UHGV virus genome: UHGV-1360403
Strand: one strand, 5' to 3'
DNA from: a virus
Length of the DNA stretch: 42,236 nt
Of this stretch, positions 1 to 39,023 are shown piece after piece. Every line of letters starts with the position of its first letter. Within the stretch, counting starts at the first letter, position 1. A program made the position numbers and the translations under genes. The notes beneath the pieces were generated by a model. That model saw only the letters and a list, made by a program, of their open reading frames with translations, was not told the origin of the DNA and did not search any database.

Positions 1-644
1 AGTTTGGTCCAGCTCTGCCCCGGAAACTGTATCGAGTTGAACCAGCGTGAGGTAAACGCGCCGTAAGTGCGCCCGAGACGTTGCCCCTGGTCCACAAACC
101 ACGATTGTCCCCACAAATCTACCAGGCCGTTCGGTGCTGGCGTACCGGTGAGATTTATCCAGCGCCGGACATACTTATGCGCCACTTTGCCCAGCGCCGC
201 CGCGCGCTTACCACCACCGCGCAGCCGGAAGGATTTTAGCCGGGTGCTTTCATCTGGAATGACAGTACCGAACGGCCATCGTTCTCCCAATTCTTCAATC
301 AGCCAGACAAGGTTATCGTAGTTGATGGTGAACACGCTTGCGTTGCTGTTCGTCAGCGCCATAGAGCGCGCTTTGGCATTACCAATAATTGGCTGCACCT
401 CGATATTGCGCAAATGTCCCCACTTCAGTGCTTCATCCGGCCATGTGCTGGCAGCCACGCGCAGCGGCGCGAGGACCAGTGCGGGGCATGTTTCTGCCCC
501 TGCCATAAAGAGATCTTCCAGCGCAGTGAGCGTTGCCACGGTTTTACCCATTCCCATCCCCGCCCAGATGTTGCCGCGCAGGGTTTCGGTTTCGTGGTTG
601 ATAATGAGAACTTGGTAGGGGCGAGGTATATATTTTGGGGGCAT
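1..644 (-). CDS. SNF2-family helicase, N-terminal part (continues at 41486..42236 across the window junction)
   Basis: ATG at 644..642; hand translation MPPKYIPRPYQVLIINHETETLRGNIWAGMGMGKTVATL... with Walker A GMGMGKT, DExx-like IPDES and LTGTP motifs; open to position 1 with no stop. Confidence 0.85.
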   Translation of the reverse strand, partial: MPPKYIPRPYQVLIINHETETLRGNIWAGMGMGKTVATLTALEDLFMAGAETCPALVLAPLRVAASTWPDEALKWGHLRNIEVQPIIGNAKARSMALTNSNASVFTINYDNLVWLIEELGERWPFGTVIPDESTRLKSFRLRGGGKRAAALGKVAHKYVRRWINLTGTPAPNGLVDLWGQSWFVDQGQRLGRTYGAFTSRWFNSIQFPGQSWTK

Positions 645-1639: not shown

Positions 1640-1924
1640 CTATTGTAATTTTTTGCCTAATATACATGAAAGCTCCTTACTATCCAGTACTACCACGGTA
1701 AAGCCCAGTTTTCGCAGACGTTCATGCTCGCGCAACTGATCAGGTCGTGGTGGTTTGCCTGGTGCTTTGCATTCGACAAAGACGATGCGACCGCCGGGTA
1801 GCAGAACAATGCGATCTGGTACCGAGCGGAGACCGGGAGATACGAACTTAAAGGCAACCCCGCCAGCCTTTTTTACTTCAGCGACGAGGTGCTTTTCGAT
1901 TAGGTTTTCACGTTCATAGGCCAT
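1640..1924 (-). CDS. VRR-NUC domain nuclease
   Basis: 94 aa; AFKFVSPGLRSVPDRIVLLPGGRIVFVECKAPGK pattern typical of VRR-NUC (PD-(D/E)xK) phage proteins. Confidence 0.75.
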   Translation of the reverse strand: MAYERENLIEKHLVAEVKKAGGVAFKFVSPGLRSVPDRIVLLPGGRIVFVECKAPGKPPRPDQLREHERLRKLGFTVVVLDSKELSCILGKKLQ

Positions 1925-2118
1925 TAGCTTTCGCCTTCCTGCTTTTTGCGTTTCTTCATGCAGATAGCGCAGTTCTCAGGATGGTCATGCCATTCGTCAA
2001 TCCTGATACCTGTGAACATCCATTTTCCGCATAGTGATATGGCTTCCCCCGAATTAAAGAAATGTGCTTTTTTCGACAGGGCGGGGAACCCCCAACCTTT
2101 ATTATCGATATTAGACAT
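1924..2118 (-). CDS. Small Cys-containing hypothetical protein (64 aa)
   Basis: ORF ends where VRR-NUC gene starts; C..C/H..C..C spacing suggests a small zinc-binding protein. Confidence 0.45.
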   Translation of the reverse strand: MSNIDNKGWGFPALSKKAHFFNSGEAISLCGKWMFTGIRIDEWHDHPENCAICMKKRKKQEGES

Positions 2119-2290
2119 CGTCCACCTCCTTACGCTTTTCGCGCATGTTCTGCATCAGACAAAAATCAAACCGACGTTCGCTTTGGCCCAGACCTGCATC
2201 GCCCGGTCGTACCCGCTGGACTGTTCAAGGCGCAAAGCCTCCCGTGCAGTCCGGTAATAAAGCGGACTGTCCCGGTATTTAAATGACATA

Positions 2291-2330
2291 GGGTTTTTAT
2301 TCCCAAATAAAAAACCCCGCAATGCAGGGT
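2291..2330 (-). terminator. Intrinsic terminator-like hairpin downstream of the TIR-like gene
   Basis: Minus strand reads CCCTGCATTGCGGGG followed by TTTTTT; the plus strand also forms GGGTTTTT...AAAAACCC. Confidence 0.5.
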
Positions 2331-2353
2331 TGTAATCAACAATAAGGGGGTAA

Positions 2354-3115
2354 TTACGAGGAAGCGTTAGCTATTTGAGCTTGTGTAAATTCGAAACCAG
2401 AATTTTGTAACCGTTGCACTAGACGAGGAACTGTTTCACGTACATGGTCGTTGAAATTCAGATACAAAATCCCGTTAGCATCAGAAGGCTGTTCTAGGTG
2501 CTGTTTCTGAAGGATTGCTACATTGCTGCGCCCTAAGGACGAAAGAAGCATACCCATCTCGAGTACAACGTTCTGTCTTGCGCGGGGTTGGATTTCTGCT
2601 TCACCGGCGCGCTTTGAGTATCCCATATCATCAGGTGTCAAAAGAACAATCCCGAAACGAGTAGCAGTTTGTCCTTGCCCAATTTCACGTTCAAGCTCTT
2701 CAATAATGGTGAGTCCAGTCCCTCCCGTATTCTGCAAAATGAAATGGTCTGGTAATCCAAGTTTATGAAGGATTAGCTCAAGTTGTTCCTTTGCAGTATG
2801 GTCATGGCCGTGAACAATGAATATCTTTTTGGGAAGCTCAGATGGCTGTTCTACGGCTAGTGGTGTTGCCGTGGGGGGCGTTCCTAAATGGGACATTATT
2901 GCAGTTTCAACATTGGGACGTTCTTGAGGGTTCCCTTGAAACTGAATGGTCCGGGTGGTGTAAAGGTTAACAATTACGCCATTCGTTAAACGATAGCAGT
3001 CATAAGTCTCACGCTGTTCGTGGGAAAAATTGGTGAACCCACACTCCCTCAAAAAGTCAGGAAAAGATTCTCTCGGGTATGGATAGTTGATCGGCATTTC
3101 AGTTAGTTCCTGCAT
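2354..3115 (-). CDS. TIR-like domain protein (253 aa): novel ~100-aa N-terminal domain plus C-terminal TIR-like nucleotide-binding domain
   Basis: KIFIVHGHD...GIVLLTPDDMG...ARQNVVLEMGMLLSSLGRSNVAIL matches the 'predicted nucleotide-binding protein containing TIR-like domain' pattern; own terminator downstream; lower G+C than PolA by eye. Confidence 0.65.
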   Translation of the reverse strand: MQELTEMPINYPYPRESFPDFLRECGFTNFSHEQRETYDCYRLTNGVIVNLYTTRTIQFQGNPQERPNVETAIMSHLGTPPTATPLAVEQPSELPKKIFIVHGHDHTAKEQLELILHKLGLPDHFILQNTGGTGLTIIEELEREIGQGQTATRFGIVLLTPDDMGYSKRAGEAEIQPRARQNVVLEMGMLLSSLGRSNVAILQKQHLEQPSDANGILYLNFNDHVRETVPRLVQRLQNSGFEFTQAQIANASS

Positions 3116-3179
3116 AAGTATTGTTCCTTTAATTTACTCGAATTCAGCATGTCGCCATAGCTCGATAAGGTGAGTTATA

Positions 3180-5243
3180 TCAATCTTTTTTGTAGTGGTA
3201 CGCCTCAAAGCCGCCAGCGTTCAGCGGAATATCGGGTGCCCATTCGGGGTTAGTGGAGAGAAGCGCGGAAAGCGCTTTATCGTTGAAATCTTCTGTGTCT
3301 GGTGCTTCGGTGATCACCTCGTCGTGTACCGTTAGCACAATGCTGTAACCGGCACCCTCGATCAGCGGCATGTTTCTGGCTAGAACGTCGCGGGCGGCCG
3401 CCTGGGTGACGTTCTCCACCAGCTTTCCGCCGTAGGTTTTGAGTCGTTGCCATTTACGCGAATAAGAGTTAACACCCATGTAGGTGATATTCCCTTGTTC
3501 GATAACCGGAGACGGGTAGCATACAGCGCGTCCGGATGGTAGCTGTATGCGCAGCCACGCGCCATCACGTCGGATTTTAAGATAGCCGCAATACAATGTT
3601 TTTTGCGGTGTGGCGATTGCTGTGCGGACAGTGCGCTCCAGCTCGTACCAGAAATCGCAGGTCGCCGGGTGCGCCCTGCGCCACAGGCGCTTGAGCGAGT
3701 CACATGCGATGAATACACGCTCGGACAGGCCAAAGGTCGACTTACGCTTAACCGATTCGTCGTACCAGCTTTTTGCCTCGCGGATAACATCGCGGGGAAT
3801 GTTTGGCAGTGCGGCGTTCGCCAGCTCGTCGAGATCGAGACCGTAAACCAGAGCAAAAGTGATGAAAGCCGATACACCACCTCCATAACCCAGACCGAGT
3901 TCCATGACTTTACCGATCTGACGCATGTGTTTATCAACATCATCTGGTGCAATATCGAAAGCTTTTGCATACGCCAGTTTATATAAGTCCGGACCCGTTC
4001 CAGCGTCATACTCTCTGAATGCATTCAGTTTCCATTCTTCTCCCGCCAGCCATGCCAGCATACGGCCTTCAATGTTTGACAAGTCACTTACCACTAGTTT
4101 TTTGCCTGTTGGCGCGATAATGCAGCCACGTAACGCTGAACTGGTTAGTTCCATGATATTGTCAAACAGCAGGTCTGCACATCCGGCTTTCAGTGCTTCG
4201 ATGCCTTCGTCTATTTGTTCCTGTTTTAGTGAAGGGCGGGGAAGGTTCTGGGGCTGGAATAGCCGTCCGGCCCAACGACCGGTACGTGACGCCCCGCAGA
4301 ACTGTAGCGTACCGCGTAAGCGCCCGTCGTGGCTTACGCCTTTCATCAGTGCCTTGTATTTACTGGTGCTGGTAGTACTGGCTTGCAGGCGGATAGCCAG
4401 CAGTTCTTTCACGGCAGATGATAAATCGGGGTCGGCCATACGACGTTCCAGGGTACTGCGTTGCATGTCTGGTAGCTCCACACCGTAGGATTCAACGATG
4501 TGCTTAATCAACGCGTCCCGTTGTGTGGCTGCCTGCACTTCGCCATCAGTCATTTCCTGTGTACGCTTTGCCAGGCGCTTTTGCTCCTGGTCTACCGCTT
4601 CGATCGCAGCGCGCGCGAGTTGCATGTCCATGCAGACGCCCCGGTCGTTGATCTGCTGATCACGATGCCAGAGCGCCAGCTCTGTCCCCTGATAATTCCA
4701 CTTCGGCAGACGTTTATAGACTTCACGCATTGCTTCGATATCCAGTCCGGCGTAAGCAACAAAGCGCCGCCATTCTTCCGGATGGGTTTTACTGGTGGCC
4801 CGACGCAGTTTGCTGTTTTTCGGACGTGGCTTACAGAACAGCTGGATCAGCGCTTTACCTTCTTTGTCCTTCGCTTTGTCTTGCGGGACGCCTAGTACTT
4901 CGCAGAGTTCCCCCAGAGACCCCGGGAGACCGTGCGCCAGCGCCTGCACCATCGTGTCGCGCCAACGTTCGACTGGCGGTGCCAGTCGCGGCATTGCATA
5001 ACGCAGAACGGTGCGGTCGAAGTGAGAGTTATGGAAATAAAGCAGGGTTTCAGGGTCTGCGATTGCTTCGTATAAGCCGTGTGGAATACCACCACCGGCA
5101 GTGATATCCCACACGTTTACTGGCCCGTCGTTGATAGCCCATGCGAAAAGCATCACTTCAACGCCTTCGGCATACGCATGGGTACCGTTCGTAATAGGGA
5201 TTTCGCAATAGGTTTCCAGGTCGCCCCATAGTATATTGGACAT
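3180..5243 (-). CDS. Family A DNA polymerase (PolA-like, with 3'-5' exonuclease region)
   Basis: 687 aa; N-terminal exonuclease-like region and C-terminal polymerase region (...[14 protein letters not shown]..., ...[11 protein letters not shown]...). Confidence 0.85.
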
Positions 5244-5289
5244 GTGTTTACCTAGGTTTTTATTCTATTAACTGATTAAAAGATTAATT

Positions 5290-5919
5290 ATGCATATGAT
5301 CCAATACTTGATTGACCATACAGAGCATCTGGAGAAAATAGCTGGATATATTTTTTCATGTTTGATTGTTATGGGAGTCTGGATAAGAAAGATCATTTTT
5401 AATTATAAGTATAAAGAGCCTAAATATGTCAAGAAGTTAATTTTATATTTAATTAAGTATGAACGTTATCTGGATAAGGAGGATAAGAAAGCCATAGAAA
5501 AAAGAATAAATGATAAAATTATTCGTGATGCGCTGAAATTGCAATCCTCTTATAACCGAAGAGATGTTATTTACATTTGCAATAGATTAGAAAAAAGACA
5601 GTATATAAATCAGTTGATTAAGCTTCAGAATTATATAGAGAAAGATAACGGAGTGTTTTTTATTAATGTTGATTTTTCAGGTTTTTTATTTATTATTAGT
5701 CGTCTGTTTTCCTTTCTGTGTTTTGTGCTGTTTACCCTTTTTTCTATTATCTGCATTATTTCCATAGGGCAAAATGAAGGCCTTTTAAATTATCTTGTGT
5801 ATATGGTTATGATAATAGTTTTAGAGACTGTTGGTTTTTGGATGTATGATACTTTCCCGTCTAAGAAAAAGATCTGTGAACTAAATAAAGAATTGAGAAA
5901 GATTAAGATTCCTGAGTGA
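5290..5919 (+). CDS. AT-rich Lys-rich membrane protein (209 aa, about 3 predicted TM helices), opposite strand to the replication operon
   Basis: Very AT-rich ORF; hydrophobic stretches IAGYIFSCLIVMGVWI, FLFIISRLFSFLCFVLFTLFSIICIISI, LVYMVMIIVLETVGFWMY. Confidence 0.6.
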   Translation: MHMIQYLIDHTEHLEKIAGYIFSCLIVMGVWIRKIIFNYKYKEPKYVKKLILYLIKYERYLDKEDKKAIEKRINDKIIRDALKLQSSYNRRDVIYICNRLEKRQYINQLIKLQNYIEKDNGVFFINVDFSGFLFIISRLFSFLCFVLFTLFSIICIISIGQNEGLLNYLVYMVMIIVLETVGFWMYDTFPSKKKICELNKELRKIKIPE

Positions 5920-5937
5920 TTATACGCCTAATCAGTA

Positions 5938-5956
5938 GCCCGGTGTTTAACCGGGC
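5938..5956. terminator. Hairpin between convergent genes (possible bidirectional terminator)
   Basis: GCCCGG-TGTTTAA-CCGGGC inverted repeat; no clear T-tract. Confidence 0.3.
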
Positions 5957-5971
5957 GTCTATGAAGTAGGG

Positions 5972-6520
5972 TTAAATTAGTGCTTCAGCATCAGCACCTT
6001 CGCTGATATCGTCGAAATCGTCAGCGCTTGCCACTCCGCCGCCAGCGAATGCATCGCCGTCTCGCAGGAACTGGACTCCGCCGAGTGAGGCATTAATGCG
6101 TTTACCGAAATTATTGTCCTGTGCCCAGATATCGATAACGGCGTTTACATAGCACCCTGCATAAGGACGTCCGTCAGCCTGAATAAGTGGCGAACGATCG
6201 CGATCAAGAACAGCTGGGCGCGCTTTGTTAGCAGCATTCAGGAAGAAATTGCCGGGGAAGCCTTCATACTCTGCTTTTTCATCACCATCATGCAGGCACA
6301 GATTGAGTTTTTTCTCCAGCTGGTTATAAATGGGCTCCCACTTCTCTCCCCATTTTTCCTTCGCTACCTGCTTCATAGCTTTACGGATTTCTTCCAGTTG
6401 TGGGTGTTTGGGAGACATTAAAAATACTGCGGAGAAACGCGGATCGCCTTCGCCGTTTACAGTTTTAGCTTCAAACAGAGACGGGAAGGCCAGACGAACA
6501 TTGTTCAGCTTCAGTTTCAT
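5972..6520 (-). CDS. DUF2815-like phage ssDNA-binding protein
   Basis: N-terminus MKLKLNNVRLAFPSLFEAK and acidic C-terminal tail (DDFDDISEGADAEALI), typical of this replication-module family. Confidence 0.75.
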   Translation of the reverse strand: MKLKLNNVRLAFPSLFEAKTVNGEGDPRFSAVFLMSPKHPQLEEIRKAMKQVAKEKWGEKWEPIYNQLEKKLNLCLHDGDEKAEYEGFPGNFFLNAANKARPAVLDRDRSPLIQADGRPYAGCYVNAVIDIWAQDNNFGKRINASLGGVQFLRDGDAFAGGGVASADDFDDISEGADAEALI

Positions 6521-6535
6521 GGGTATTTCCTTAAA

Positions 6536-7837
6536 TCAGATGAGGTCTGCGGTTAGCGTATCGTCGGATACGTCGTCGAAATCATTTACAGGGTTGATAT
6601 TGAGTGCGGGGCGTGGGTCTGACTCGGGAACGACGGTTGGTTTACCATCAGCTCGTGTTATCAGTGCCTCGACTTTTGACCAACGGCGTGGACTGGCCTT
6701 TTTGATAAGTTTTTCGGCTTTTGTGGGACTAATAAGTTTAAAGTCGAATACTTCTTCAGTTTTGTACCTGAACTGGTCCTTCAGAAGTGCGCGAGCTGCC
6801 TCTTCATCACTCCAGGCCCGGTTACCTTGTTTTCCTGTTACCAGTTTAAACCCCGGTACCGGATGTCCGGCATTGAGTTCATTGTGAACCCGGTCCCGTA
6901 CTGCCTTTAGCCAGGACTCAATAAAGTCGGCCTGGCTATAGATCTCCGCAAGCTGCTCAATGGTTAACAGAGGTACACGTGCGCTGGCATTGGTGATTAT
7001 TTCGCTGACAGGCTTTGTCAGATCTTCAAAGTCGCTGGCCGCTGTTTGTAAATGCTGCATTTTCTGGGCAGTGCAAATAGCTTTTGCTTTACAGAAGCGG
7101 CACTGCTTTTCTCCAGGTATGAAGTTTTCCAGCGGTAGTGTCTCAATGCCTTCGCATTCAGCAATATTGAGAACAAGGATCGCACTGGTTGCGGCCTCCT
7201 GTGCTCGTTTACCGAAAGACTGAAGTTCCTGCACGGTTAACGACCATTCTGAAACGTGGTTGAGCCTTGGCTGGTGAATAAATAATCTTACAGTCTCAAA
7301 GTCATACAGCATGCTGAATTGTTCGAGAGCACCCAGAGCATACAGTTGTAGTTGCTCATTTTGTTCTGCATCAATGCGGACGCCTTTGCCATATTTCAGG
7401 TCGTGGATTTGTAATTCGCTACCAGCGATGATTATGCCGTCGGCAGTTCCGAAAGATTCTTCCACACCCGTTATATGTGAGAAATCAACACGTTGTTCAA
7501 CCAATAGTTCATTATTCTGTGCAAGAGTCCAGACCGTATCAACATACCGGCCAACGGCTTCGACCATTTCATCATCCACCTGTGGGCCAGATGTATCATC
7601 AGGATTTTCGCGAAGGGGGTATGAGCCGAGAAACATAGAAACATTGCATCCGGCGTAGTGTTCCGGGTGGCTTTGCCTGTTTCGTAGAACTTTTTCAGCA
7701 AGCGCGTGCGCTGCAGTGCCCTCGATTGCAAAAGTTGTTTCTTTATCCGGTTGTGTGGCCTCCAGCGCCAGACTTCCTGGGCAGCGCATCCATCGATGCG
7801 CTGATGATGGAGAAAGTTGTGCATGAACGTCTGGCAT
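6536..7837 (-). CDS. DUF2800-like PD-(D/E)xK nuclease (Cas4-like, C-terminal Cys cluster)
   Basis: [16 protein letters not shown]-terminal signature; C-terminal [10 protein letters not shown] cysteine cluster. Confidence 0.75.
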
Positions 7838-10057: not shown

Positions 10058-10732
10058 TTAGTACATGCGTAGCGCGGATTTGGCGATCCCCGCCACGTAA
10101 TGGATTTTTTCAATGTTTTCGCGTGGTACTCTGACTGGTGGATGATCTTCATTTACAGACATTAGATGGAACAGGCCATCGCGTTCGAACAAGAAGGTTT
10201 TAACCATGACCTCACCGTCCCGGGTAACCACAAGTACTTCATCACCAGGAGTGTAGTCGTGGTTGGGTTCGACGATTACGAACTCACCCTCTTTGATTCT
10301 AGGCATCATTGAATCACCAACACATTTCAGGGCGTATGCATCTTCATCCTTTGTCGGCCAGTATATGAAACCATCACTGCTACCTACTGAATATTGGGTG
10401 TCGCTCCAAAGTCCTCCAACGCCTAGCTGAGTGTTTCCCAAAACAGGTACTTTATTAAACCTAAGAGAAATATACGTTTTTATACCCGTCGCGTCCTCTT
10501 TCTCCATTTCTTGAAGGCTCCTTTCTGCCAGGTCTATTGGTGACACGTGGAAGTAGTCGGCGATCTGCTTTAACGTTGCGTATTTCGGATCTTTCACCTC
10601 TCCTGATACCAGCCTGTGTAGCGTTGGTTGGTTCAGTTGTAACCGACGTGCCAGCTCAGTTATCGAGCTTATCTTGGCTTTGTCCATCAGGTACTTGATG
10701 TTTTGAGAAAGGATATCGGTAGTATCAATCAT
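10058..10732 (-). CDS. CI-like repressor (N-terminal HTH, C-terminal S24 LexA-like autopeptidase)
   Basis: HTH ...SITELARRLQLNQPTLHRLVSG...; S24 signature CVGDSMMPRIKEGEFVIVEP with downstream Lys. Confidence 0.9.
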   Translation of the reverse strand: MIDTTDILSQNIKYLMDKAKISSITELARRLQLNQPTLHRLVSGEVKDPKYATLKQIADYFHVSPIDLAERSLQEMEKEDATGIKTYISLRFNKVPVLGNTQLGVGGLWSDTQYSVGSSDGFIYWPTKDEDAYALKCVGDSMMPRIKEGEFVIVEPNHDYTPGDEVLVVTRDGEVMVKTFLFERDGLFHLMSVNEDHPPVRVPRENIEKIHYVAGIAKSALRMY

Positions 10733-10873: not shown

Positions 10874-11074
10874 ATGTCCGGACTAACACCACAAGAGATG
10901 GTCAAAAGCTTGATTGATTCAGGGTATACCCAAAACCAAATTGCCGAAATTGCAGGCGTGAAGCAGTCTTCTATTAGTCGGCTTCTCACCGGGGTTCATT
11001 CTGACCCTCGCTTTTCTACAGTACGTGCGATAGAAAAGCTTTTTCAGGAAGTGACAGCTAGACAAAAGGCGTAA
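10874..11074 (+). CDS. Cro-like HTH regulator
   Basis: 66 aa; HTH QNQIAEIAGVKQSSISRLLTG; divergent from the repressor. Confidence 0.75.
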   Translation: MSGLTPQEMVKSLIDSGYTQNQIAEIAGVKQSSISRLLTGVHSDPRFSTVRAIEKLFQEVTARQKA

Positions 11075-11077
11075 CCC

Positions 11078-13339
11078 ATGTCTGATAACAAACCATGGGG
11101 AGCTACGCCCGATGAGTGGTTCCACTTCGATCTGGTGTTGGGGATGACAGACAGGCTTTTACCTGTGGTGTCCAATCCCTGTGCAGAACTGTCGCCTAAT
11201 AGCAAGCTGTCTCATAATTTCGGCAAAACCCCCAGTCGCTACAATGGCCAACGTAAGGTTGTTGGTATCCCCGACTGGGCTAACTATGTTGTTACGGAAA
11301 ACGATTTTGCCCGGTGGTCGAACGAACCCGATTACGGTATTTGCGTTCGTACTGGCGACGGGGTGGTGGCTCTGGACTGCGATATCAATGACGCCGGGAT
11401 GCAGGAGATCGTACGCAATATTATCCTGTCATGCCTGGGGGAACTTCCGCCACGTCGCTGGCGGGCTGACAGTCATAAATGCCTGTACCTGATTGCTGTT
11501 GATGGCGACTACCGTAAACGTGGTCACCGCCTGGAAGGCGAAAACAAACAAATAGAGCTGCTCGCTAAGGGCCAGCAGTTTGTGGCTTGTGGTACCCATC
11601 CGGCAGGCGAACGTATTAAGTGGGACTGCGGTCTGCCCGGCGAACCTCTGAAAATTACATCTGAACAGCTCGAAAGCCTGTGGCAGCGTCTGGCGGATAA
11701 CTTACCCGTGAAAGACAGCTATACCGCAGGTGCAGGACGTCAGCGTGATCTTTCCTGTGTTGATCCTTCCGCGACAGATGATGTCGCCGACTGGCTTGAC
11801 GCGAACGGGTGGACTCTGTCAGTCAGCTCTGATGGTTCCCGCAATCTGAAACCGTTTCGGGATGAGTCAGAATACAGCAACGGTTGCAGCGAAACATCCA
11901 TTAAGTATTTCCCAAAAGGGACGGGGGGATTTGAACAGGGACATTTTAAAAGCATGCACAACACCGATGCGGGGCTTACTGATGCCGACTGGCTGGAAGG
12001 CTACGGCTATACGCAATCCCTGTTCGAAGATCTCACGGTGGTTGAAGATGGCGATAAGCCTGAATTTACCGATATTAATACAGATATGACAGCTCATTTT
12101 CTGGAACGCTTTATCTACGTCATCGAGGGTGACCAGGTATGTGATCTTAGCCGACCGCCATATCAGTGCATGATGGATATGAAGTCGTTCAAAAACCTGA
12201 TGGCGCCTTACCAGTTCCCGCCAGAAGGGAAAGGGCAACCAACTCCCGCAACCAAACGGTGGATAGAGCATCGGCATAAGAAGATTGCTGAGACGACAGG
12301 CTATAAGCCCGGTGCGGGACGTATTATCGAGCGTTTCGACGGGCGGTTTGAGATAAACGAATTTTATATGCCTGAGCATCCACGTACAGCGGATACAAGT
12401 AAGGTGTCCACGTTCCTTAATCATATGGCGTATCTGGTACCTGATGCCTGGCAGCGCGAGTTTTTCATCGCCCGTCTGGGGTGGATGGTTCAGCGTCCGG
12501 AGCGTCGATGCCCGATTTCTATTCTGCATGTGGCTTCCGCACATGGTACGGGCAGAGGATGGGTCAGCCAGTTAATGGAGCGCGTGCTTGGTCCGTGGAA
12601 CTGTGCTCGTACTCGCATGAAGATCCTGTGCGATAACCAGTTCCATGACTATCTGTACAATACGCTTCTATGCACCATTGACGAGGTGCGCGAAAATGAT
12701 AAGCGGTATGAGGTGAACGATAAGATCCGTGACGTGCTGACAGAACCACGGTTTGAAGTGAACCGCAAATATGGCAGCAAAAAAACGATGGATATATACA
12801 CCGGCTTTCTGTTCTACACCAACCACTTTGATGCGCTGGCGCTGCCAGAGGAAGACCGACGTATCGCTGTGCTGGGGGGCCCTGACTTCGCCGCAACTGA
12901 AGAGCATTACGCCAGCCTGTACGGTGCGCTAAGCGACAGCGACTTTATCGCCCAGGTGTACTGGTATCTGATGGGCGTTGACCTGTCTCGCTTTAACTGG
13001 CAGCGCGCCCCCGAGACGAAAGAACGCCTTCTGATGATTGAAAGCAATAAGAGCGATGTGGAGGCTGCTCTTATTGAAATCCTGGATAATCCGCCTGTGC
13101 CAGCAATGACTTATCAACAAATTGTTAACGCAATACTGGCAGAAGCAGGAATGGATGTAGAAATTAACCAGAAGCATATTACTCGCATTTTGAAAGAAAG
13201 AACAAAGCGGGAACCCGTACGCGTAAAAATTGACGGGTTTGTATATAGGATTTGGATTCTTGTAAAAAATAACGATTTCAGCAACGAAGAATTGCGCGAA
13301 ATATATAAATCTTGCGAAATTTTGCAATCTGGATTGTAA
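11078..13339 (+). CDS. Primase / replication initiation protein (Prim-Pol-like N-terminal domain, D5/VirE-like C-terminal region)
   Basis: 753 aa; ...GICVRTGDGVVALDCDIND... and ...IELLAKGQQFVACGTHPAGERIKW... resemble the bifunctional primase-polymerase N-domain; sits directly before the iteron region. Confidence 0.7.
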   Translation: MSDNKPWGATPDEWFHFDLVLGMTDRLLPVVSNPCAELSPNSKLSHNFGKTPSRYNGQRKVVGIPDWANYVVTENDFARWSNEPDYGICVRTGDGVVALDCDINDAGMQEIVRNIILSCLGELPPRRWRADSHKCLYLIAVDGDYRKRGHRLEGENKQIELLAKGQQFVACGTHPAGERIKWDCGLPGEPLKITSEQLESLWQRLADNLPVKDSYTAGAGRQRDLSCVDPSATDDVADWLDANGWTLSVSSDGSRNLKPFRDESEYSNGCSETSIKYFPKGTGGFEQGHFKSMHNTDAGLTDADWLEGYGYTQSLFEDLTVVEDGDKPEFTDINTDMTAHFLERFIYVIEGDQVCDLSRPPYQCMMDMKSFKNLMAPYQFPPEGKGQPTPATKRWIEHRHKKIAETTGYKPGAGRIIERFDGRFEINEFYMPEHPRTADTSKVSTFLNHMAYLVPDAWQREFFIARLGWMVQRPERRCPISILHVASAHGTGRGWVSQLMERVLGPWNCARTRMKILCDNQFHDYLYNTLLCTIDEVRENDKRYEVNDKIRDVLTEPRFEVNRKYGSKKTMDIYTGFLFYTNHFDALALPEEDRRIAVLGGPDFAATEEHYASLYGALSDSDFIAQVYWYLMGVDLSRFNWQRAPETKERLLMIESNKSDVEAALIEILDNPPVPAMTYQQIVNAILAEAGMDVEINQKHITRILKERTKREPVRVKIDGFVYRIWILVKNNDFSNEELREIYKSCEILQSGL

Positions 13340-13341
13340 AA

Positions 13342-13606
13342 AGGTGACGGCTAGGTGACGGCAAAACGCTTAAGCGTCACCTTAAAAAGTATATATAAAA
13401 CAATGGGAAATGTGCTAAAGGTGACAGGTGACGGCAGAATTTAAAACTATATACGCGATAGTGTGTATTTTAGGTATTATACGATCGCTTATATATAGAG
13501 AACTAAAATCAACCGTCACCTGTCACCTAAAACATCTTCAGGCCTTATATGGCGCGCTTTGCAGCAGGTGACGGATATGTAATTACGCGTCACCTAGCCG
13601 TCACCC
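13342..13606. repeat. Iteron-like nested inverted repeats around an AT-rich core (candidate origin of replication)
   Basis: GGTGACGGCTAGGTGACGG (13343-13361) and AGGTGACAGGTGACGG (13419-13435) are mirrored by ACCGTCACCTGTCACCT (13512-13528) and CGTCACCTAGCCGTCACC (13588-13605); extra GGTGACGG copies at 13373-13381 and 13565-13574. Confidence 0.6.
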
Positions 13607-13654
13607 GGAAATTAACTTGAAAAAATTAGCAAATAACTAAATGAGGATACGACG

Positions 13655-13945
13655 ATGTCAAAGATATTCCGCCAATGTATGCCTTACGGTATCCGCAAAA
13701 CAGCTGAGGGGGCTTGGGAAGCATTCAACAGAGACTACCAGCCCTTAGGGGAGGCTTTTTTCTTCAAAAGAGCACTAACGCAGGCCACTCGAGATGTGTT
13801 GGCGCCACCGCCGGTAACTCAGCGCGACGACTGTGTATGGCTGTATAGCGATATCGAGCACCCGATGCACTCTGAGGCTTACTGGAAAGCGTATTGCCAG
13901 CGGCTTAAACATCTTTCTAACCTCAAAATGAAAGATGAACGGTAA
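13655..13945 (+). CDS. Hypothetical protein (96 aa)
   Basis: ORF with consistent codon usage between the origin region and the late regulator. Confidence 0.5.
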   Translation: MSKIFRQCMPYGIRKTAEGAWEAFNRDYQPLGEAFFFKRALTQATRDVLAPPPVTQRDDCVWLYSDIEHPMHSEAYWKAYCQRLKHLSNLKMKDER

Positions 13946-13970
13946 GTAGCAAAACGTAGAGGTCAGAGCT

Positions 13971-14393
13971 ATGCGTGATATTCGACTGGTTTTAGAGCGA
14001 TGGGGGGGCTGGGCTGCGAGCGAAGGTTGCAGTGTCTACTATCCACCTGTTTCCGCTGGATTTAAGAATCTGCTACCTGCAACGCAAGCCGGGCGGCTGA
14101 AGTGCAGTGACAATGACGGTCTGATCATCAGCTCTGCTATGAACTGCCTGAAGAAAAAAGATCCGTACCTGTGTACGCTCCTTGAGTGGCATTACATCCA
14201 GGCGATGCCTGTGAGGGCTATGGGTGTGAAGCTCGGCGTATCACACACTCAAGTTCTGAAGAGGCTCCAGGCTGCAGAGGGATTTATCGACGGCTGCCTG
14301 GCTATGCTGGACGTGGTTCTGGAAATGGATCAAGCAGTTCAGTCAAAGCCTAAGGCTATCAGGACTTTGCGAAGGAGCTGCCCGGCGGCATAA
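13971..14393 (+). CDS. Late-gene regulator, Q-like antiterminator candidate
   Basis: 140 aa, immediately upstream of a promoter/terminator region and the lysis cassette; C-terminal HTH-like AMGVKLGVSHTQVLKRLQ. Confidence 0.5.
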   Translation: MRDIRLVLERWGGWAASEGCSVYYPPVSAGFKNLLPATQAGRLKCSDNDGLIISSAMNCLKKKDPYLCTLLEWHYIQAMPVRAMGVKLGVSHTQVLKRLQAAEGFIDGCLAMLDVVLEMDQAVQSKPKAIRTLRRSCPAA

Positions 14394-14547
14394 TATCCAG
14401 TAATCAATCACGTAAGGGAATCAGATGGTATTCAGGATTGCCGTAAACACCTGACGGCTTCAGGTATCAAGGTAAGATAAAAAATAGTTGTGGAATTCCA
14501 AAAAGCCGATTAGCCTGATATCTGTTGAAAACAGTTCATCACGAAGA

Positions 14548-14572
14548 GGCTTCCGCAAGGGGGCCTTTTTTA
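14548..14572 (+). terminator. Intrinsic terminator (first of two after the Q-like gene)
   Basis: GGCTTCC-GCAA-GGGGGCC (GNRA loop, two G-U pairs) followed by TTTTTT. Confidence 0.5.
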
Positions 14573-14799
14573 TTGCCCCATTCTGGGGAAAAGTTAATAA
14601 AACAGGGCTTTCGCTGCGAAAAAACGCTATGCAGTTTTTGCCCTTTTTTATGCACCTTTTATTCACTCGAATTTCGTCATTCTGGACCACTTAAGTTGAT
14701 TAAATAGGCCTTTCATCGCAAATCTATTGCGAGCGGGGATCGTGTGGTTCCTATAACGTACATTATGTTAAATAACTTCCTTTTTTAACAAATTTAACA

Positions 14800-14826
14800 A
14801 GGTTCGCTATGGCGAACTTTTTTTGT
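14800..14826 (+). terminator. Intrinsic terminator (tR'-like) upstream of the lysis genes
   Basis: GTTCGC-TATG-GCGAAC followed by TTTTTTTG. Confidence 0.7.
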
Positions 14827-14907
14827 ATTCAGGGCCCACCGAAGGACGGCTCATAACCCAATCCTACGGGCGTATACGCAGGGCCCGCCTTTCAACAACA
14901 CCCCGTA

Positions 14908-15267
14908 ATGGCGGAGGTGGGAAGTATGAAAATGCACAATGCTCCTCATTCCTGGCCTGACTTACTGGAACTCTTACAAAGTTGGTGGCGTGGAGATACG
15001 CCGTTGGGCGCAGTGGTTATGTCAATTGTTATGGCTGGCTTGCGCATTGCCTATTTTGGCGGTGGCGGCGGCTGGAAACGAAAAACGCTTGAGATTTTGC
15101 TCTGTGGTGCTCTGACGCTGACTTTTGCATCCGCTCTTGAGTATGTCGGATGGCCTAAATCGCTTTCTGTTGCCATTGGTGGTGGTGTTGGGCTGATCGG
15201 TGTCGATGCTATTCGTGGGGCTGCAATGCGAGTAATCGGTAACAAGTTTGGTGGCTCTAAGGAGTAA
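14908..15267 (+). CDS. Holin
   Basis: 119 aa with hydrophobic segments; directly precedes the endolysin; N-terminus MAEVGSMKMHNAP offers alternative starts. Confidence 0.7.
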   Translation: MAEVGSMKMHNAPHSWPDLLELLQSWWRGDTPLGAVVMSIVMAGLRIAYFGGGGGWKRKTLEILLCGALTLTFASALEYVGWPKSLSVAIGGGVGLIGVDAIRGAAMRVIGNKFGGSKE

Positions 15268-16316: not shown

Positions 16317-16889
16317 ATGACTAAGAAGCTGAAAGCAAAACACGAGGTGTTTTGTCGCGAGTTTCTTGTCGATCTGAATGCTACACAAGCAGCTATTCGC
16401 GCAGGCTACGTCTCCAGGCGAGCACATGTTACGGGGGCTGAACTATACGGTAAACCTGAGATACGCGCCCGTATTAACGAGCTAAAGCAGGAGCGTATTG
16501 ATCAACTGGGCATTGATGCGAATTATGTGCTGATGCGACTGGTTGAGATCGACAGGCTCGATGTGGCTGACATCCTAGAGGACGATTTAAGTATTAAGCC
16601 TCTGTCTGCGTGGCCGGAATCGTGGCGTCGGTACCTGAGTGGATTTAACCTCGCTGAAATGTTTGAGGGGCGAGGAGATGACAGAGAAATGGTCGGGATC
16701 CTTAAAAAGATTAAGTGGCCTGATAAGGTTAAAAACCTTGAGTTGCTTGGGCGTCATGTTTCTGTTCAGGCGTTTAAAGACAACGTCAAAAATGAAGTGA
16801 CTGGCGCTGATGGAGGACCAGTCAGAACAGAAATTACCAACTTAACGCCGGAGCAGGCTGCAGAGGCGTATAGAAAAATGATGGGCTAA
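16317..16889 (+). CDS. Terminase small subunit
   Basis: [25 protein letters not shown]... N-terminal motif typical of P27-type small terminase; precedes the large subunit. Confidence 0.8.
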
Positions 16890-16891
16890 GT

Positions 16892-18514
16892 ATGCCGTTA
16901 CCATTCCCCTTCGATTTTAAACATCCTGATTACCAGATGGTTTTTGAATGGCGGATGGAACGCCTACAGCGCATTCGCCAGAATCCTGAAATATTGCCTG
17001 CACTAAAACAGTTTTACCGAACCAATCCGGCTCAGTTCATCATCGACTGGGGCATGACAACGGACCCGCGTAATATTGATTATGGCCTGCCGGTGACCAT
17101 TCCGTTTTTACTCTTCCCTAAGCAGGAGGAGTGGATCCACTGGATTATGGAACGCTGGGGCAATCGGGAGAATGGTATTACCGAAAAATCCCGTGAAATG
17201 GGGCTCAGTTGGACCGCGATCGGACTGGCATGTTCGCTTTGTCTCTTCAACAAAGAAATGGTTATCGGTTTCGGCTCCCGTAAAGAGGAATACGTCGACA
17301 GCACCGGTGACCCGAAAGCATTGTTCTGGAAGGCGCGCAAGTTCGTGGAAACACTGCCTGTAGAGTTTCGCGGTTCGTGGAGCGAGAAGAAGCACGCGCC
17401 ATATATGCGTGTTGAGTTTCCTGAAACTGGTGCCGTTATCAAAGGCGAGGCTGGCGATAATATTGGTCGTGGTGACCGTACCACGCTTTATCTGGTTGAT
17501 GAGGCTGCATTCCTTCAGCGTCCTCTGCTGATTGATGCGGCGTTGTCACAAACGACGCGTTGCCGTATCGACCTGAGTTCAGTTAACGGCATGGCTAACC
17601 CGTTCGCTCAGAAGCGTCATGGCGGGAAGATACCGGTATTCACATTCCACTGGCGGGATGATCCTCGCAAGGATGAAGAGTGGTATCGCAGGGAATGCGA
17701 GAAAATCGATAATCCGGTGGTGGTGGCACAGGAACTTGATCTGAACTACAGCGCATCAGCGGAAGGCGTCCTGATTCCATCCGAATGGGTACAGGCTGCC
17801 GTTGATGCGCATATCAAACTGGGTATCCAGCCAACAGGCAAACGACTTGGCGCGATGGATGTCGCCGACGAAGGCAGGGACAAAAATGCCTTTTCCACCC
17901 GTCATGGCTTCCTCCTGGAAAATGTGCGGGAATGGTCCGGTGTGGGCAGCGACATTTATCAGTCCGTCAAGAAGGTTTTCGGCTTTTGCGAACAGGACAA
18001 CCTCGAAGAGTTTCGCTTTGACGAGGACGGGCTGGGCGCTGGCGTTCGCGGCGATGCACGCGCTATCAACGAACTGCGTAACGCTGCGCGTCGACCGTCA
18101 ATACTTGCCACACCGTTTCGAGGTAGTGGCGCGGTATTTGATCCGGATGATGAAGCTGTTCGCGGGGACAACGGGCAAGCCGCACGTCTGAACAAGGACT
18201 TCTTCGCTAACGCCAAAGCCCAGAGCTGGTGGCGGTTACGTAAACTTTTTCAGAATACCTGGCGCGCCGTGGTTGAAGGTATGGCTTACAACCCGGACGA
18301 AATCATCTCAATCAGCAGTAGCATGGCACTCAAAGATAAACTCATCATCGAGCTTTCGCAGCCGACCTATTCCATTAATGGTGTGGGAAAAATAGTTATT
18401 GATAAACAGCCTGATGGAACCCGATCGCCAAACCTTGCCGACTCGGTGATGATCAACTATGCCCCAATGAATTCAGCCCTGAACATCTGGGAGCTGCTAG
18501 GGAGACAGGCCTGA
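16892..18514 (+). CDS. Terminase large subunit
   Basis: 540 aa, position between small terminase and portal; ATPase and nuclease-like regions. Confidence 0.8.
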
Positions 18515-36259: not shown

Positions 36260-36852
36260 TGACCCCAATTTTTGATGAAAATGGACTGGCTACAGTGCCG
36301 GGCGATATGCGTTGTTTTTATTATGATGCTGAAACATCTGAGTATACGGGCTGGTCTGATGAATATATTAATACTGGCGTAAGTATGCCCGCCTGTTCCA
36401 CTGGAATTAACCCTGGCGAAAACATTCCGGGAAAAGTGGCTGTATTTACAGGTAAGGGATGGAGCCATGAAGAGGACCATCGCAATGAGACTGTTTACTC
36501 AATCGAAAATGGCGCAGCTGTTACAGTGGATTATATCGGTGCCATCAAAGATGGTTATGTCACGCTTTCACCGTTAACGCCATACGATAAATGGGATGGT
36601 GAGAAATGGGTGACGGATACCGAGGCACAGCATAGCGCCGCAGTAGACGCGTCAGAAGCACAGCGCCAGTCACTGATTGATGCAGCAATGGCTTCCATTA
36701 GTCTGATTCAGCTGAAATTACAAGCCGGGCGGAAACTGACGCAGGCAGAAACAACCCGGCTTAACGCTGTGCTGGATTACATTGACGCGGTGACGGCAAC
36801 AGATACCAGCACCGCGCCGGATGTCATCTGGCCTGAACTGCCGGAGGCGTAG
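36256..36852 (+). CDS. Tail fibre assembly protein (Tfa/U-like)
   Basis: C-terminal ...[26 protein letters not shown] is a typical Tfa signature. Confidence 0.75.
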
Positions 36853-37264
36853 GCCATTCAATATCTGGCGCACCGGAAGTATCGACCAGTTCCAGTGCGT
36901 CCAGATAATCCAGCCACAAATTATATTGCACCAGTTCCTCACCTTTCAGGCGACCAATCGCCGCTTTACCAGGCCATTGCTTACTGTTTATGTATTCGTT
37001 GACCTGATTAATCAATTGCTGCTTTTTCAGTTCGGCTGCGGCAATTTGTTCCTCATGAGTTGGCGGTGGAATATCAATCCATGCAGGCATTCCGTCGATG
37101 ACACCTCTGTATTTTCCTTCTGGTGCTTCCTTCATAAATTCGGCAGCAACAGTGTCGTCAATTTCGATTCCATCATCGGGCCATTCGCCGGATTCCTGAT
37201 AAGCGATTTTAAGCTCCACAGGGAAAAACGCATTTTTATCGGCACTGAAAATATATTTCTGCAT
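36824..37264 (-). CDS. Alternative tail fibre assembly protein (U'-like), inverted orientation
   Basis: C-terminal ...[29 protein letters not shown]; convergent with and overlapping the plus-strand Tfa. Confidence 0.7.
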   Translation of the reverse strand: MQKYIFSADKNAFFPVELKIAYQESGEWPDDGIEIDDTVAAEFMKEAPEGKYRGVIDGMPAWIDIPPPTHEEQIAAAELKKQQLINQVNEYINSKQWPGKAAIGRLKGEELVQYNLWLDYLDALELVDTSGAPDIEWPTPPAVQAR

Positions 37265-37266
37265 TT

Positions 37267-37625
37267 CTACCGTCCTATCGAAATATAACTGAATCTGTAT
37301 TGCTGTGAGATATCACTGGTTGCCACACGCCACGCTGAATTACTGATATGTTCAAAATTTACAGACAAAACCTGCGGGGCAGGATTCGACGGGTCTGACT
37401 GAACGGCATCAGACATAACACTGACTGAAATCATCGGCTGATTAGGGAATGGTATAGGGAAGTGTCCACTGATAAAGCGGGTCGTGTTTCCTGAAAAAGT
37501 GCCAAACTGAACAATATATCCACCTGGTAGCCTGAACCATCCCGAACCAGAAGCGAATGCTCCCATATCCGGTATCTGATTATCTCCTGTGCCCACATTC
37601 CGTTTTGCCGCTTCTCCCAAACCAA
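37267..37625 (-). CDS. Alternative tail-fibre C-terminal cassette (Sv'-like), expressed only after inversion
   Basis: Minus-strand ORF reads ...INVGLGEAAKRNVGTGDNQ... through the right inverted repeat, sharing GLGE with the fibre at the crossover; the upstream ATG (37665) is probably fortuitous. Confidence 0.55.
37611..37625. repeat. Right inverted repeat of the invertible tail-fibre segment
   Basis: CTTCTCCCAAACCAA, reverse complement of 35802-35816; flanks agree at 5 of 7 further positions. Confidence 0.7.
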
Positions 37626-37691
37626 CGTTTATGAAAATGCAGAAATAACGAGCAAATGGCATCATTCCTGCTTTTGTCAGAGGGATCCACT

Positions 37692-38006
37692 ATGCTTATT
37701 GGCTATGTACGTGTGTCAACAAATGACCAGAACACAGATCTACAACGTAATGCGCTGAACTGTGCAGGATGCGAGCTGTTTTTTGAAGACAAGATAAGCG
37801 GTACAAAGTCCGAAAGGCCGGGACTGAAAAAACTGCTCAGGACATTATCGGCAGGTGACACTCTGGTTGTCTGGAAGCTGGATCGGCTGGGGCGCAGTGT
37901 GCGGCATCTTGTCGTGCTGGTGGAGGAGTTGTGCGAACAAGGTGTTAATTTTAGTAGTTATGTTATTACAGGTGGGGGATTTCTCCCCCTTATGCAGATT
38001 TTCTAG
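37692..38006 (+). pseudogene. Serine DNA invertase (Gin/Hin/Pin/Cin family), 3'-truncated
   Basis: MLIGYVRVSTNDQNTDLQRNAL...DTLVVWKLDRLGRS...GVNF matches the catalytic domain of Gin-type invertases; similarity stops near 37952 and the ORF ends after an unrelated 17-aa tail; no C-terminal HTH. Confidence 0.75.
37974..37989. repeat. Short GC hairpin at the junction between the invertase remnant and the low-GC island
   Basis: GGGGGA-TTTC-TCCCCC. Confidence 0.4.
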
Positions 38007-38010
38007 TTAA

Positions 38011-38856
38011 CTATTGGCGAAGTGGCCATATTTTTCTGTTTTTTAAAAAACTATCTTCAACTATATAACTGCAACAATGTTCACTAAGGCCATAAAAACT
38101 AATTATTCCATATTTATGAGAAGCTATATCAGACAGTTCTGCTAATACTGTGGCAAGCCAACGAGCGATGCTAAGAGAATAGAATCTTCCCCACTTTTGA
38201 ACAATGGTATTTTGTCCAGTACGGATGGAGGCTGATATAAGGTCTTGCATAATGTTGGTACTTTCATTCATATACATGACCGTTGTATACGGTGAAAGAG
38301 TGGCATTGATAAACCTAGCATTTTCTTCAACACGTCTTTGTTCAACTGTATAATAATAATGTTTTTCAAGGATACTCTCGGCTACTTCTCCCCACCATTT
38401 ATTAATAGGTTCATTATTGGTTAAATTGGGGCTGCTTAATGAGGAGAAATTTGCGTAACGTCCCCGTCGGGCATCAGCAAAGGAATCTAAACATTCAAGT
38501 ATTTTGTAGGTAATTTTATGTGTAGGACGTGAATATCTCAGAGATAGTTGCATTTTTTTAGAAATACTATCAACCTCGTTGGTTAATTCAATGAGCTTAT
38601 GTCCAAATTTTCTTACAATATTCTCATCAGGCATTTTCCCTTTGTGTTCAATGGCATAGTGTGCAACAAGTATTAGTTTAGCAAGTCTCTCAAAACCTAC
38701 AGAAAGCCCAAAAAATGCTGTGTAATATTCACCTATTTTGTCTGCATAATTGGCTTTACCTATGGCTGTTGCCCCAGAACCAATGAGCTGTGTAACTAAA
38801 GATGCTTCTCGGCCCAGAGCGTGCCATGCTGGAATATCCCAGGGATTTTTATTCAC
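38011..38856 (-). CDS. AT-rich cargo protein (281 aa), function unknown
   Basis: Long AT-rich ORF in an AT-rich block that interrupts the invertase; R-x5-H (RYSRPTH) noted but not diagnostic. Confidence 0.55.
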   Translation of the reverse strand: MNKNPWDIPAWHALGREASLVTQLIGSGATAIGKANYADKIGEYYTAFFGLSVGFERLAKLILVAHYAIEHKGKMPDENIVRKFGHKLIELTNEVDSISKKMQLSLRYSRPTHKITYKILECLDSFADARRGRYANFSSLSSPNLTNNEPINKWWGEVAESILEKHYYYTVEQRRVEENARFINATLSPYTTVMYMNESTNIMQDLISASIRTGQNTIVQKWGRFYSLSIARWLATVLAELSDIASHKYGIISFYGLSEHCCSYIVEDSFLKNRKIWPLRQ

Positions 38857-38984
38857 TTTATTATTTTCCTTTGCTCATAAATTTAAATTGTTTGAGTATC
38901 TCATAAAATATAAGGAGATGGTTAAGGTTGTTGATCGCATATAATAGCTATTGAAAGTCAAGAACTCGGTTTTATGTTCTACCA

Positions 38985-39023
38985 CTAATTAATATATTGT
39001 GAGTTTGACAATATATTAATTAG
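38985..39023. repeat. Perfect 16-bp inverted repeat with 7-bp spacer
   Basis: CTAATTAATATATTGT-gagtttg-ACAATATATTAATTAG. Confidence 0.6.

Follow-up and report, generated by a model that had tools for sequence, protein, structure and literature searches.

Directly downstream of the primase-helicase gene of the virus genome UHGV-1360403 lies a mirror-symmetric array of ten short repeats (iterons) around an AT-rich centre. We propose, with a probability of roughly 0.8, that this array is the replication origin of the phage and that its ten sites are bound by a winged-helix domain predicted in the last ~95 residues of the primase-helicase, hereafter called the initiator. The window, by which we mean the whole 42,236-nucleotide stretch of DNA analyzed here, is a complete temperate Escherichia coli phage that encodes terminase, head, tail, lysis, repressor and integrase functions. 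A preliminary description of the array, made from the letters of the window alone, had also read it as an origin. That reading is now supported by comparative evidence, namely the co-variation of the iterons with the C-terminus of the primase, the presence of a single cluster in the window, its AT-rich centre and the occurrence of similar arrays on small plasmids.

Ten iterons flank an AT-rich centre

The array occupies the non-coding gap (13340-13654) between the 753-codon initiator gene and a 96-codon reading frame, orf96 (13655-13945). Its first site begins 3 nt past the TAA stop codon of the primase gene (13337-13339), in agreement with the position directly 3' of this gene that had been described for it. 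Within 13343-13605 there are ten GGTGAC(G/A)(G/C) sites, five on each strand (Table 1). The preliminary description had counted eight copies of GGTGAC(G/A)G; the repeats are real, but this count was too low, since two GGTGACGC copies on the minus strand (iterons 3 and 9) bring the number of sites to ten. The motif GGTGACRG is found 13 times in the window, as compared to an expectation of 1.95 +/- 1.4, and this number was reached in 0 of 100 shuffles; eight of the 13 copies lie inside 13343-13605. Similarly, 10 of the 36 copies of the hexamer GGTGAC/GTCACC in the window fall within 13340-13610, and elsewhere in the window no 300-bp stretch holds more than two.

The centre-to-centre spacings of the sites are 11, 20, 46, 7, 86, 7, 47, 20 and 11 bp, and the array is mirror-symmetric about position 13474: an outer triplet (-> -> <-), a spacer, an inner pair (->->), the centre, an inner pair (<-<-), a spacer and an outer triplet (-> <- <-). 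This symmetry bears out the two mirrored arrays that had been noticed from the sequence. The distance of 160-250 bp given for the mirrored copies fits the outer triplets, but the inner pairs are only ~86-100 bp apart. Likewise, the stretch described as AT-rich (13385-13505) is so in composition, but it really consists of two segments, which are split by the inner-left pair of sites.

Forty-mers in the AT-rich DNA have a calculated stability of approximately -43.7 kcal/mol, as compared to a window mean of -54.9 +/- 4.4 kcal/mol, and are therefore about 2.5 standard deviations less stable. The centre contains an inverted repeat (13448-13462 / 13481-13495), which reads CTATATACGCGAGA ... TA(C/T)GTATATAG and is constant in all five iteron classes described below. 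In the alignment of related arrays, the central helices are paired in 83-91% of cells, yet their sequence is almost invariant.

A 47-codon reading frame inside the array (13428-13571) was ruled out as a gene, because relatives show indels and changes of a non-coding type there. Conservation across the iteron classes extends to the DNA between the last iteron and the start of orf96 (13606-13654; AAATTAACTTGAAAAAATTAGCAAATAAC...), which lacks the pattern of a sigma-70 promoter. In one relative in which the downstream gene has been replaced (L008), positions 13600-13650 are still 80% identical to the window.

Iteron class follows the C-terminal end of the initiator

Four Escherichia phage records of the vB_EcoM-606R2 group match the array region with 100% identity. 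In the phage database, the region was found only in these four near-identical records, and other phage primase matches were partial; relatives were therefore sought in IMG/VR and in a set of genomes with one per species. These scans yielded 85 loci encoding relatives, which were compared over about 7 kb each. Among 5,426 complete E. coli genomes, 45, among them that of an ST38 strain, contain the array region, each in a single copy; none of these 45 genomes was seen to carry two arrays.

At 27 of the loci the homology of the primase extends over its whole length or nearly so, with 67-99% identity to that of the window, and all 27 have the ten-site layout directly 3' of the primase gene. Their sites fall into five classes: GGTGACGG (GACGG), GGTGACAG (GACAG), GGTGGCAG (GGCAG), GGTAACAG (AACAG) and GGTGTCAG (GTCAG). 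An alignment of 16 arrays representing the five classes kept all ten sites in register, and the class-defining positions 4, 5 and 7 of GGTNNCNG switch in all copies together. At two loci of the GGTGACAG class (L001 and L022), the eighth site is GGTGTCAG, the word of another class, either because a heterologous site is tolerated or because cassettes have recombined.

Within the DNA compared, iteron class tracks residues 703-745 of the primase alone. Residues 721-723 are FVY in the GACGG class, xT[V/L] in the GGCAG class, IAQ in the GACAG class and xT[N/Q] in the GTCAG class; the AACAG class has [M/I]GY together with a one-residue insertion. These class-specific residues reappear in backgrounds that are just 68% identical. 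Five alignment columns reached a normalised mutual information with iteron class of at least 0.6, the top four being 722, 721, 715 and 723, and the fifth 35. At one locus (L013, reading frame 2064-4262) the protein stops at residue 731, with loss of the C-terminal helix and retention of the wing and the array. In Erwinia tracheiphila (L004, 3001-3420) the initiator reading frame ends after 139 codons.

Natural recombinants separate the iterons from other candidate readers. The window and L010 are 100% identical up to position 13200, 58-78% identical over 13200-13600 and 98-100% identical over 13600-13950; their iterons are of the GACGG and GGCAG classes, respectively, and 13 of the 15 residue differences between their primases lie within 713-745. 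Locus L008 has kept the array of the window, with orf96 swapped for an unrelated gene. Across the antiterminator gene Q, the identity profile to the window is the same for L008 as for L010; the two thus appear to share a Q allele, and their iterons differ. Over most of the 4.6 kb upstream, with cI/cro included in full, loci L011 and L014 agree at 97-99% of positions, and they carry GGCAG and AACAG iterons, respectively. Conversely, L010 and L011 have unrelated immunity regions and the same iterons. Finally, at L033-L035 the Prim-Pol domain has been exchanged between the window family and a sister family that has a VapE-type ATPase: residues 1-330 are 96-97% identical to the window primase, the C-terminal half is of the VapE type, and the iterons (AGGTTGAGT) are unrelated. 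These swaps therefore exclude cI, Cro, orf96, Q and the Prim-Pol domain as readers of the iterons. The preliminary description had pointed to the primase as the protein whose binding to the repeats should be checked. The protein is the same, but co-variation assigns the predicted binding to its small C-terminal winged helix and not to the primase domain, because relatives with a ~97%-identical primase domain and another C-terminal half carry unrelated iterons.

Domain structure of the initiator

The initiator begins with a primase domain of the archaeo-eukaryotic type (Pfam PF09250 over residues 75-185), and the protein as a whole matches PHROG 1156, 'DNA primase'. The ATPase core matches Pfam PF19263 (DUF5906) over residues 487-595, and residues 456-659 align with the helicase domain of the NrS-1 primase-polymerase (6k9c, E = 4e-8). 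A phmmer search of all PDB chains to E = 1 returned the NrS-1 primase and CagT as the sole matches; whether that set includes Rep of the Staphylococcus aureus pathogenicity islands (SaPI) was not checked.

The predicted C-terminal winged helix consists of helix H1 (660-670), strand S1 (676-678), helices H2 (679-690) and H3 (698-709), two wing strands (714-718 and 721-727) and a C-terminal helix (736-752). The segment that tracks iteron class, 703-745, models as the recognition helix H3 and the wing of this fold.

The window protein and all 33 relatives examined have arginine (GTGRGW, Arg493; residues 490-495, window 12545-12562) in place of the Walker A lysine of the ATPase core. The Walker B motif (DE), the lysine of the KN hairpin and the RR finger are conserved. 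NrS-1 has GTGKG at the Walker A position; its Lys453 has been described as catalytic, and K453A has been listed as one of the mutants whose helicase activity is impaired. In the VapE sister family the Walker A motif is normal, GCGKSS.

Similar arrays in a sister family and on small plasmids

In the sister family, which combines Prim-Pol with the VapE-type ATPase (L005-L007, L033-L085), the arrays begin at or overlap the stop codon and consist of 3 + 3 inverted iterons flanking a (TA)n centre, ACCCCATATATATATATAAGTCG. About ten iteron variants were seen among the twelve loci examined, and the last ~12 residues of the protein co-vary with them.

More distant homologues are encoded on circular plasmids of 7.6 to ~9 kb. 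They are 21-28% identical to the primase over roughly its C-terminal half, and some of the alignments extend to residue 742 or 753. The Proteus plasmid pW47-1 (8,955 bp, L087) encodes a PriCT_2 + Toprim_3 + DUF5906 protein that is 28% identical over residues 341-753 of the primase. All ten GGTTACAA sites of this plasmid lie in one nested inverted array ~300 bp 3' of the homologue gene (region 4107-6988), and no further replication gene was found on it by Pfam. The E. coli plasmid pRHB04-C06_4 (L088, 3900-4256) has a GGTTACACAT array in the same position. Taken together, these plasmids support the view that a DUF5906 protein plus a downstream array may constitute a self-sufficient replicon.

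The ~9 kb circular plasmids that carry a Toprim/DUF5906 or related protein and an array have no typed replicon. A further protein of pW47-1, annotated as tape measure, matches a family of phage minor tail proteins; because of this tail-family protein, the array plasmids may be phage-derived or satellite-like elements.

Proposed mechanism and considerations against it

The best-supported model for the function of the array is patterned on SaPI Rep. Protomers of the initiator would dock on the mirror-symmetric sites, 3 + 2 per side, and docking would assemble rings of the superfamily 3 (SF3) ATPase in opposite orientations, flanking the 77-bp AT-rich centre. The centre would then melt, the N-terminal Prim-Pol domain would prime on the exposed strands, and the family A polymerase and single-strand DNA-binding protein of the phage would extend the primers bidirectionally. 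The family A polymerase is the likely extending enzyme, and the Enc34/gp2.5-type single-strand DNA-binding protein a probable replication partner. With a polymerase, a single-strand-binding protein, nucleases and a superfamily 2 (SF2) helicase encoded in its own genome, the phage may itself drive elongation. We infer each step of this model, from physical binding, ring assembly and melting to priming and the choice of polymerase.

Several considerations weigh against this interpretation. It is the comparison of related sequences that places the start of replication at the array. The array adjoins the 3' end of the gene with which it co-varies, and their co-inheritance could in part reflect physical linkage. 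Yet divergence is highest in the wing codons (58% identity over 13200-13250), whereas the codons from the wing to the array are 78-92% identical, which argues against simple hitch-hiking. A distant co-varying DNA-binding gene, beyond the ~7 kb compared per relative, is possible. The helicase activity of the ATPase domain is uncertain, because Arg493 stands at the position of NrS-1 Lys453, in all 33 relatives as well. The least stable DNA of the window lies outside the AT-rich centre. Searches of the array for DnaA-box and IHF consensus sequences found none; a Fis consensus search was likewise negative, and GATC is present once. Finally, GC skew shows a monotonic rise that goes with gene orientation, and no inflection at 13.4 kb. 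Because gene orientation is the main determinant of skew in temperate phages, this result says little.

A broader proposal, which we hold only tentatively and would place somewhat short of even odds, is that the last ~50 residues of the initiator and the array together form a portable specificity cassette under diversifying selection. The proposal comprises five or more mutually orthogonal pairs in this family, with further variants in the sister family and on small plasmids, a natural wing code, a role in incompatibility or anti-hijacking among co-resident prophages and satellites, and an arginine-bearing ring that acts as a melter like the origin recognition complex (ORC). From one pair to another, 1-2 bp change per site and 3-8 residues in the wing (residue 722, for example, is V, A, T or G). 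If the proposal is correct, such wing differences would constitute a natural code by which a winged-helix wing recognizes DNA, and the cassette an incompatibility or anti-hijacking system among prophages and satellites that share a host. The arginine in Walker A would then point to an ORC-like melter, with fork unwinding left to the SF2 helicase and polymerase of the phage.

Alternative functions of the array

The array might instead be an auxiliary cis element like crr of phage P4, which the initiator binds to stimulate synthesis that begins at a separate origin. The P4 crr, with type I iterons in both orientations, directly follows the alpha gene just as the array follows the initiator gene, and the P4 ori is 4.5 kb away. 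The window has the appearance of a complete phage genome, circularly closed or permuted; it closes on itself because the reading frame of the SF2 helicase crosses the end-to-start junction without a stop. A crr-like role is improbable because this self-closing window contains a single cluster, and the array also has an AT-rich symmetric centre of its own.

According to a second alternative, the array serves only as a regulatory operator: bound by the primase or by another factor, it would provide autoregulation of the early-right operon or stop transcription from PR before it reaches orf96 and Q, and in this way time the late genes. The array does belong to the early-right transcription unit, in which it lies after the primase gene and before Q, and a scan of 13000-15000 for promoters and terminators found no intrinsic terminator or sigma-70-like promoter in 13340-13654. 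A roadblock to PR read-through may exist, and it could coexist with origin function. As the sole function, however, we regard regulation as very unlikely. Similar arrays follow homologous initiators on small plasmids without Q or late genes, those of the VapE family have different genes downstream, and ten sites flanking a melting-prone centre exceed the needs of an operator. Moreover, the only plus-strand promoter-like site and the only terminator found in the scan lie after Q. This position of the late promoter-like site and terminator also goes against the possibility, left open in the preliminary description, that the repeats act only as a late promoter.

The strong folding of the array suggests a third alternative, in which a long extruded stem-loop or cruciform is the functional element, as in replicases of the pRN1 ORF904 and BPP-1 types, and the repeats are a mere by-product of the palindrome. 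A single strand of the array folds at -57.6 kcal/mol (z = -8.6), and the domain order of the initiator is that of pRN1 ORF904, whose stem-loop origin lies downstream of its gene (PMC4234260). The pairing seen in the aligned arrays makes such a structure scarcely likely. Outside the iterons, pairing equals the composition control (65.0% of cells as compared to 63.6% in shuffles), and stems joining the left and right spacers are retained in only 35-55% of cells. The two spacers also differ in composition (78% as compared to 51% AT), and the tandem direct copies at 11-bp and 7-bp spacing would be superfluous for a hairpin. Support for the long-stem model from pairing ends with the iterons and the central inverted repeat. 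A search of Rfam returned no RNA family at the array, only miRNA hairpin families far below threshold, which matched because of the palindrome.

Packaging (pac/cos), partition and recombination sites also use clustered short and inverted repeats, but such a role is hardly credible here, with the terminase genes 2.7 kb downstream, the integrase gene at 39889-41292, no partition genes seen and the array inherited with the C-terminus of the primase rather than with structural or integration genes.

Genomic setting of the array

The features of the window that are considered here are listed in Table 1. No gene resembling O or P was found between cro and Q by PHROG or Pfam. On the 3' side of the terminator-like hairpin are the genes for holin, endolysin, spanin and terminase.

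Table 1. Coordinates of the iteron array, the initiator gene and other features of the window
Feature	Position	Strand	Remarks
Whole iteron array, candidate replication origin	13342-13606		264 bp
Iteron 1, GGTGACGG	13343-13350	+	
Iteron 2, GGTGACGG	13354-13361	+	11 bp past iteron 1
Iteron 3, GGTGACGC	13374-13381	-	inverted
Left spacer	13383-13418		36 bp, 78% AT
Iteron 4, GGTGACAG	13420-13427	+	
Iteron 5, GGTGACGG	13427-13434	+	7 bp past iteron 4, with which it overlaps by 1 nt
AT-rich centre, proposed unwinding region	13436-13512		77 bp, 74% AT
Iteron 6, GGTGACGG	13513-13520	-	
Iteron 7, GGTGACAG	13520-13527	-	
Right spacer	13529-13565		37 bp, 51% AT; conserved GCCTTA; no mirror image of the left spacer
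Iteron 8, GGTGACGG	13567-13574	+	
Iteron 9, GGTGACGC	13587-13594	-	
Iteron 10, GGTGACGG	13598-13605	-	
Initiator gene, 753 residues	11078-13339	+	Prim-Pol primase, DUF5906 SF3 ATPase/helicase core and predicted C-terminal winged helix
Predicted C-terminal winged-helix domain (residues about 660-753)	13055-13336	+	
Specificity segment (residues 703-727)	13184-13258	+	end of recognition helix H3 and beta-hairpin wing (modelled); changes with iteron class
S24/helix-turn-helix repressor	10058-10732	-	
Cro-like helix-turn-helix protein	10874-11074		upstream of the initiator gene
Antiterminator Q	13971-14393		follows orf96
Promoter-like site	14367-14394		after Q
Terminator-like hairpin	14799-14820		after Q
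Terminase genes	16317-18514		2.7 kb downstream of the array
Integrase	39889-41292		just ahead of the end-to-start junction
Family A DNA polymerase	3180-5243	-	PF00476, PHROG 17
Enc34/gp2.5-type single-strand DNA-binding protein	5972-6520	-	PF10991, PHROG 112
DUF2800 PD-(D/E)XK nuclease	6536-7837	-	
VRR-NUC protein	within 1640-7837	-	weak Pfam match, below the curated cut-off
SF2 helicase, 465 codons	41486-42236 joined to 1-644	-	100% identical to the ON470588 helicase

The phage is a lambdoid temperate myovirus with a self-contained replication set on the minus strand (1640-7837 and 41486-644). Such a combination of replication genes is found more typically in virulent phages of the Chi-like and Nazgul-like groups, and it is there that the remote primase matches in the phage database were found. 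Between the polymerase and nuclease genes of the early-left operon, on the minus strand, a gene at 2354-3115 encodes a TIR-domain protein of the CAP12/Pycsar-effector type (PF10137, E = 3e-31), which is a candidate defence or counter-defence gene.

Two islands of low GC content (5001-6000 and 38001-40000; 35-39% as compared to about 50% GC) contain genes that are oppositely oriented or unmatched, namely 5290-5919 (plus strand) and 38011-38856 (minus strand), and are probably acquired accessory genes (morons). At 36821-38006, opposed tail-fibre assembly genes adjoin a DNA invertase gene (positions 37007-38757 of ON470588), an arrangement that suggests an invertible host-range segment.

Significance and comparison with known systems

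In the deposited phage records the primase is labelled 'hypothetical protein' and the array is unannotated. A literature search found no description of this origin or of these phages, and one may exist elsewhere. For a replication module that is widespread in enterobacterial temperate phages and has no annotation, the present analysis identifies a candidate origin together with a domain predicted to bind it, and in the relatives the two are swapped together as one cassette. Such swaps are ready-made initiator/origin pairs, closely related yet of different predicted specificity, for studying how a winged-helix wing reads DNA. They may also help to predict cross-talk between the replicons of prophages, satellites and plasmids, and could perhaps serve as orthogonal replicons. 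The module reveals no new principle. It is of a known kind, an initiator-helicase with a C-terminal winged helix and 3' iterons about an AT-rich centre, which follows the logic of SaPI Rep/ori and of P4 alpha. What it adds is a clean cassette, a few wing residues that track changes of 1-2 bp in the sites, and an unusual arginine P-loop.

In phage lambda, the iterons are part of the O gene, their reader is the N-terminal domain of O, and P serves to recruit host DnaB. Lambdoid phages are known to exchange classes of initiator-iteron specificity. The present phage shares with lambda the order of PR, cro, replication gene and Q, as well as the existence of such specificity classes. In contrast to that of lambda, its array is intergenic, the predicted reader is a C-terminal winged helix, and the initiator has its own primase and ATPase.

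The large T antigen of SV40 and the E1 protein of papillomaviruses are SF3 helicases that assemble head-to-head on inverted short sites flanking easily melted DNA. The symmetry of the array suggests the same logic for the phage. This is an analogy only, as the origin-binding domains are unrelated and a double hexamer of the phage protein is hypothetical.

Replicases of the pRN1 ORF904 and BPP-1 types share both domain order and a downstream origin with the phage. ORF904 combines a prim-pol domain, an SF3 helicase and a C-terminal winged helix, and its origin lies downstream of the gene (PMC4234260). Origins of these types have been described as long stem-loops without iterons, whereas the phage conserves iterons and a short central inverted repeat.

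P4 alpha and the phage initiator both combine a primase, a DUF5906-type SF3 helicase (PF19263 in both) and a C-terminal origin-binding domain, predicted in the case of the phage. Both crr of P4 and the phage array consist of octamer iterons in both orientations directly after the gene. The P4 type I repeat TGTTCACC, which is GGTGAACA on the other strand, resembles the phage site GGTGACAG with one extra base. The type I iterons of P4 (L086, 4291-4590 and 9310-9413) also resemble the GGTTACAA sites of the small plasmid. The likeness of the P4 and phage iterons could reflect shared ancestry of the reader domain or convergence; no homology was detected between the phage and P4 alpha C-terminal domains (BLASTP E = 14; hhalign probability 0.3). 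In other respects the two systems differ. The primase of alpha is of the Zn_Ribbon_Prim + Toprim_3 type, whereas that of the phage initiator is a Prim-Pol (PF09250); the C-terminal domain of alpha is of the Pox_D5 type, and the initiator has no PF03288 match; P4 requires two clusters, ori and crr, whereas the phage has one in a closed window.

The SaPI and the related phage-inducible chromosomal islands (PICI) offer a further parallel. The C-terminal winged helix of SaPI Rep binds 6-12 iterons that lie directly 3' of rep in opposite orientations about an AT-rich centre; a pair of hexamers, one per side, is believed to load itself, and the specificity of the C-terminus for the iterons is matched by allele (PMC9371898). 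SaPI/PICI Rep, including the fused Pri-Rep of SaPI5, and the phage protein are both self-encoded SF3 initiators with a C-terminal winged helix, which is predicted here, and in both systems the iterons lie directly 3' of the gene and flank an AT-rich centre, half of them to its left and half to its right, with the two halves facing opposite ways. In contrast to the SaPI and PICI, which are phage-dependent satellites, the element described here belongs to a complete temperate E. coli phage. It also differs from SaPI in having a Prim-Pol primase fused to the helicase, 8-bp sites in a nested 3+2 / 2+3 layout, and arginine in place of the Walker A lysine of the initiator.

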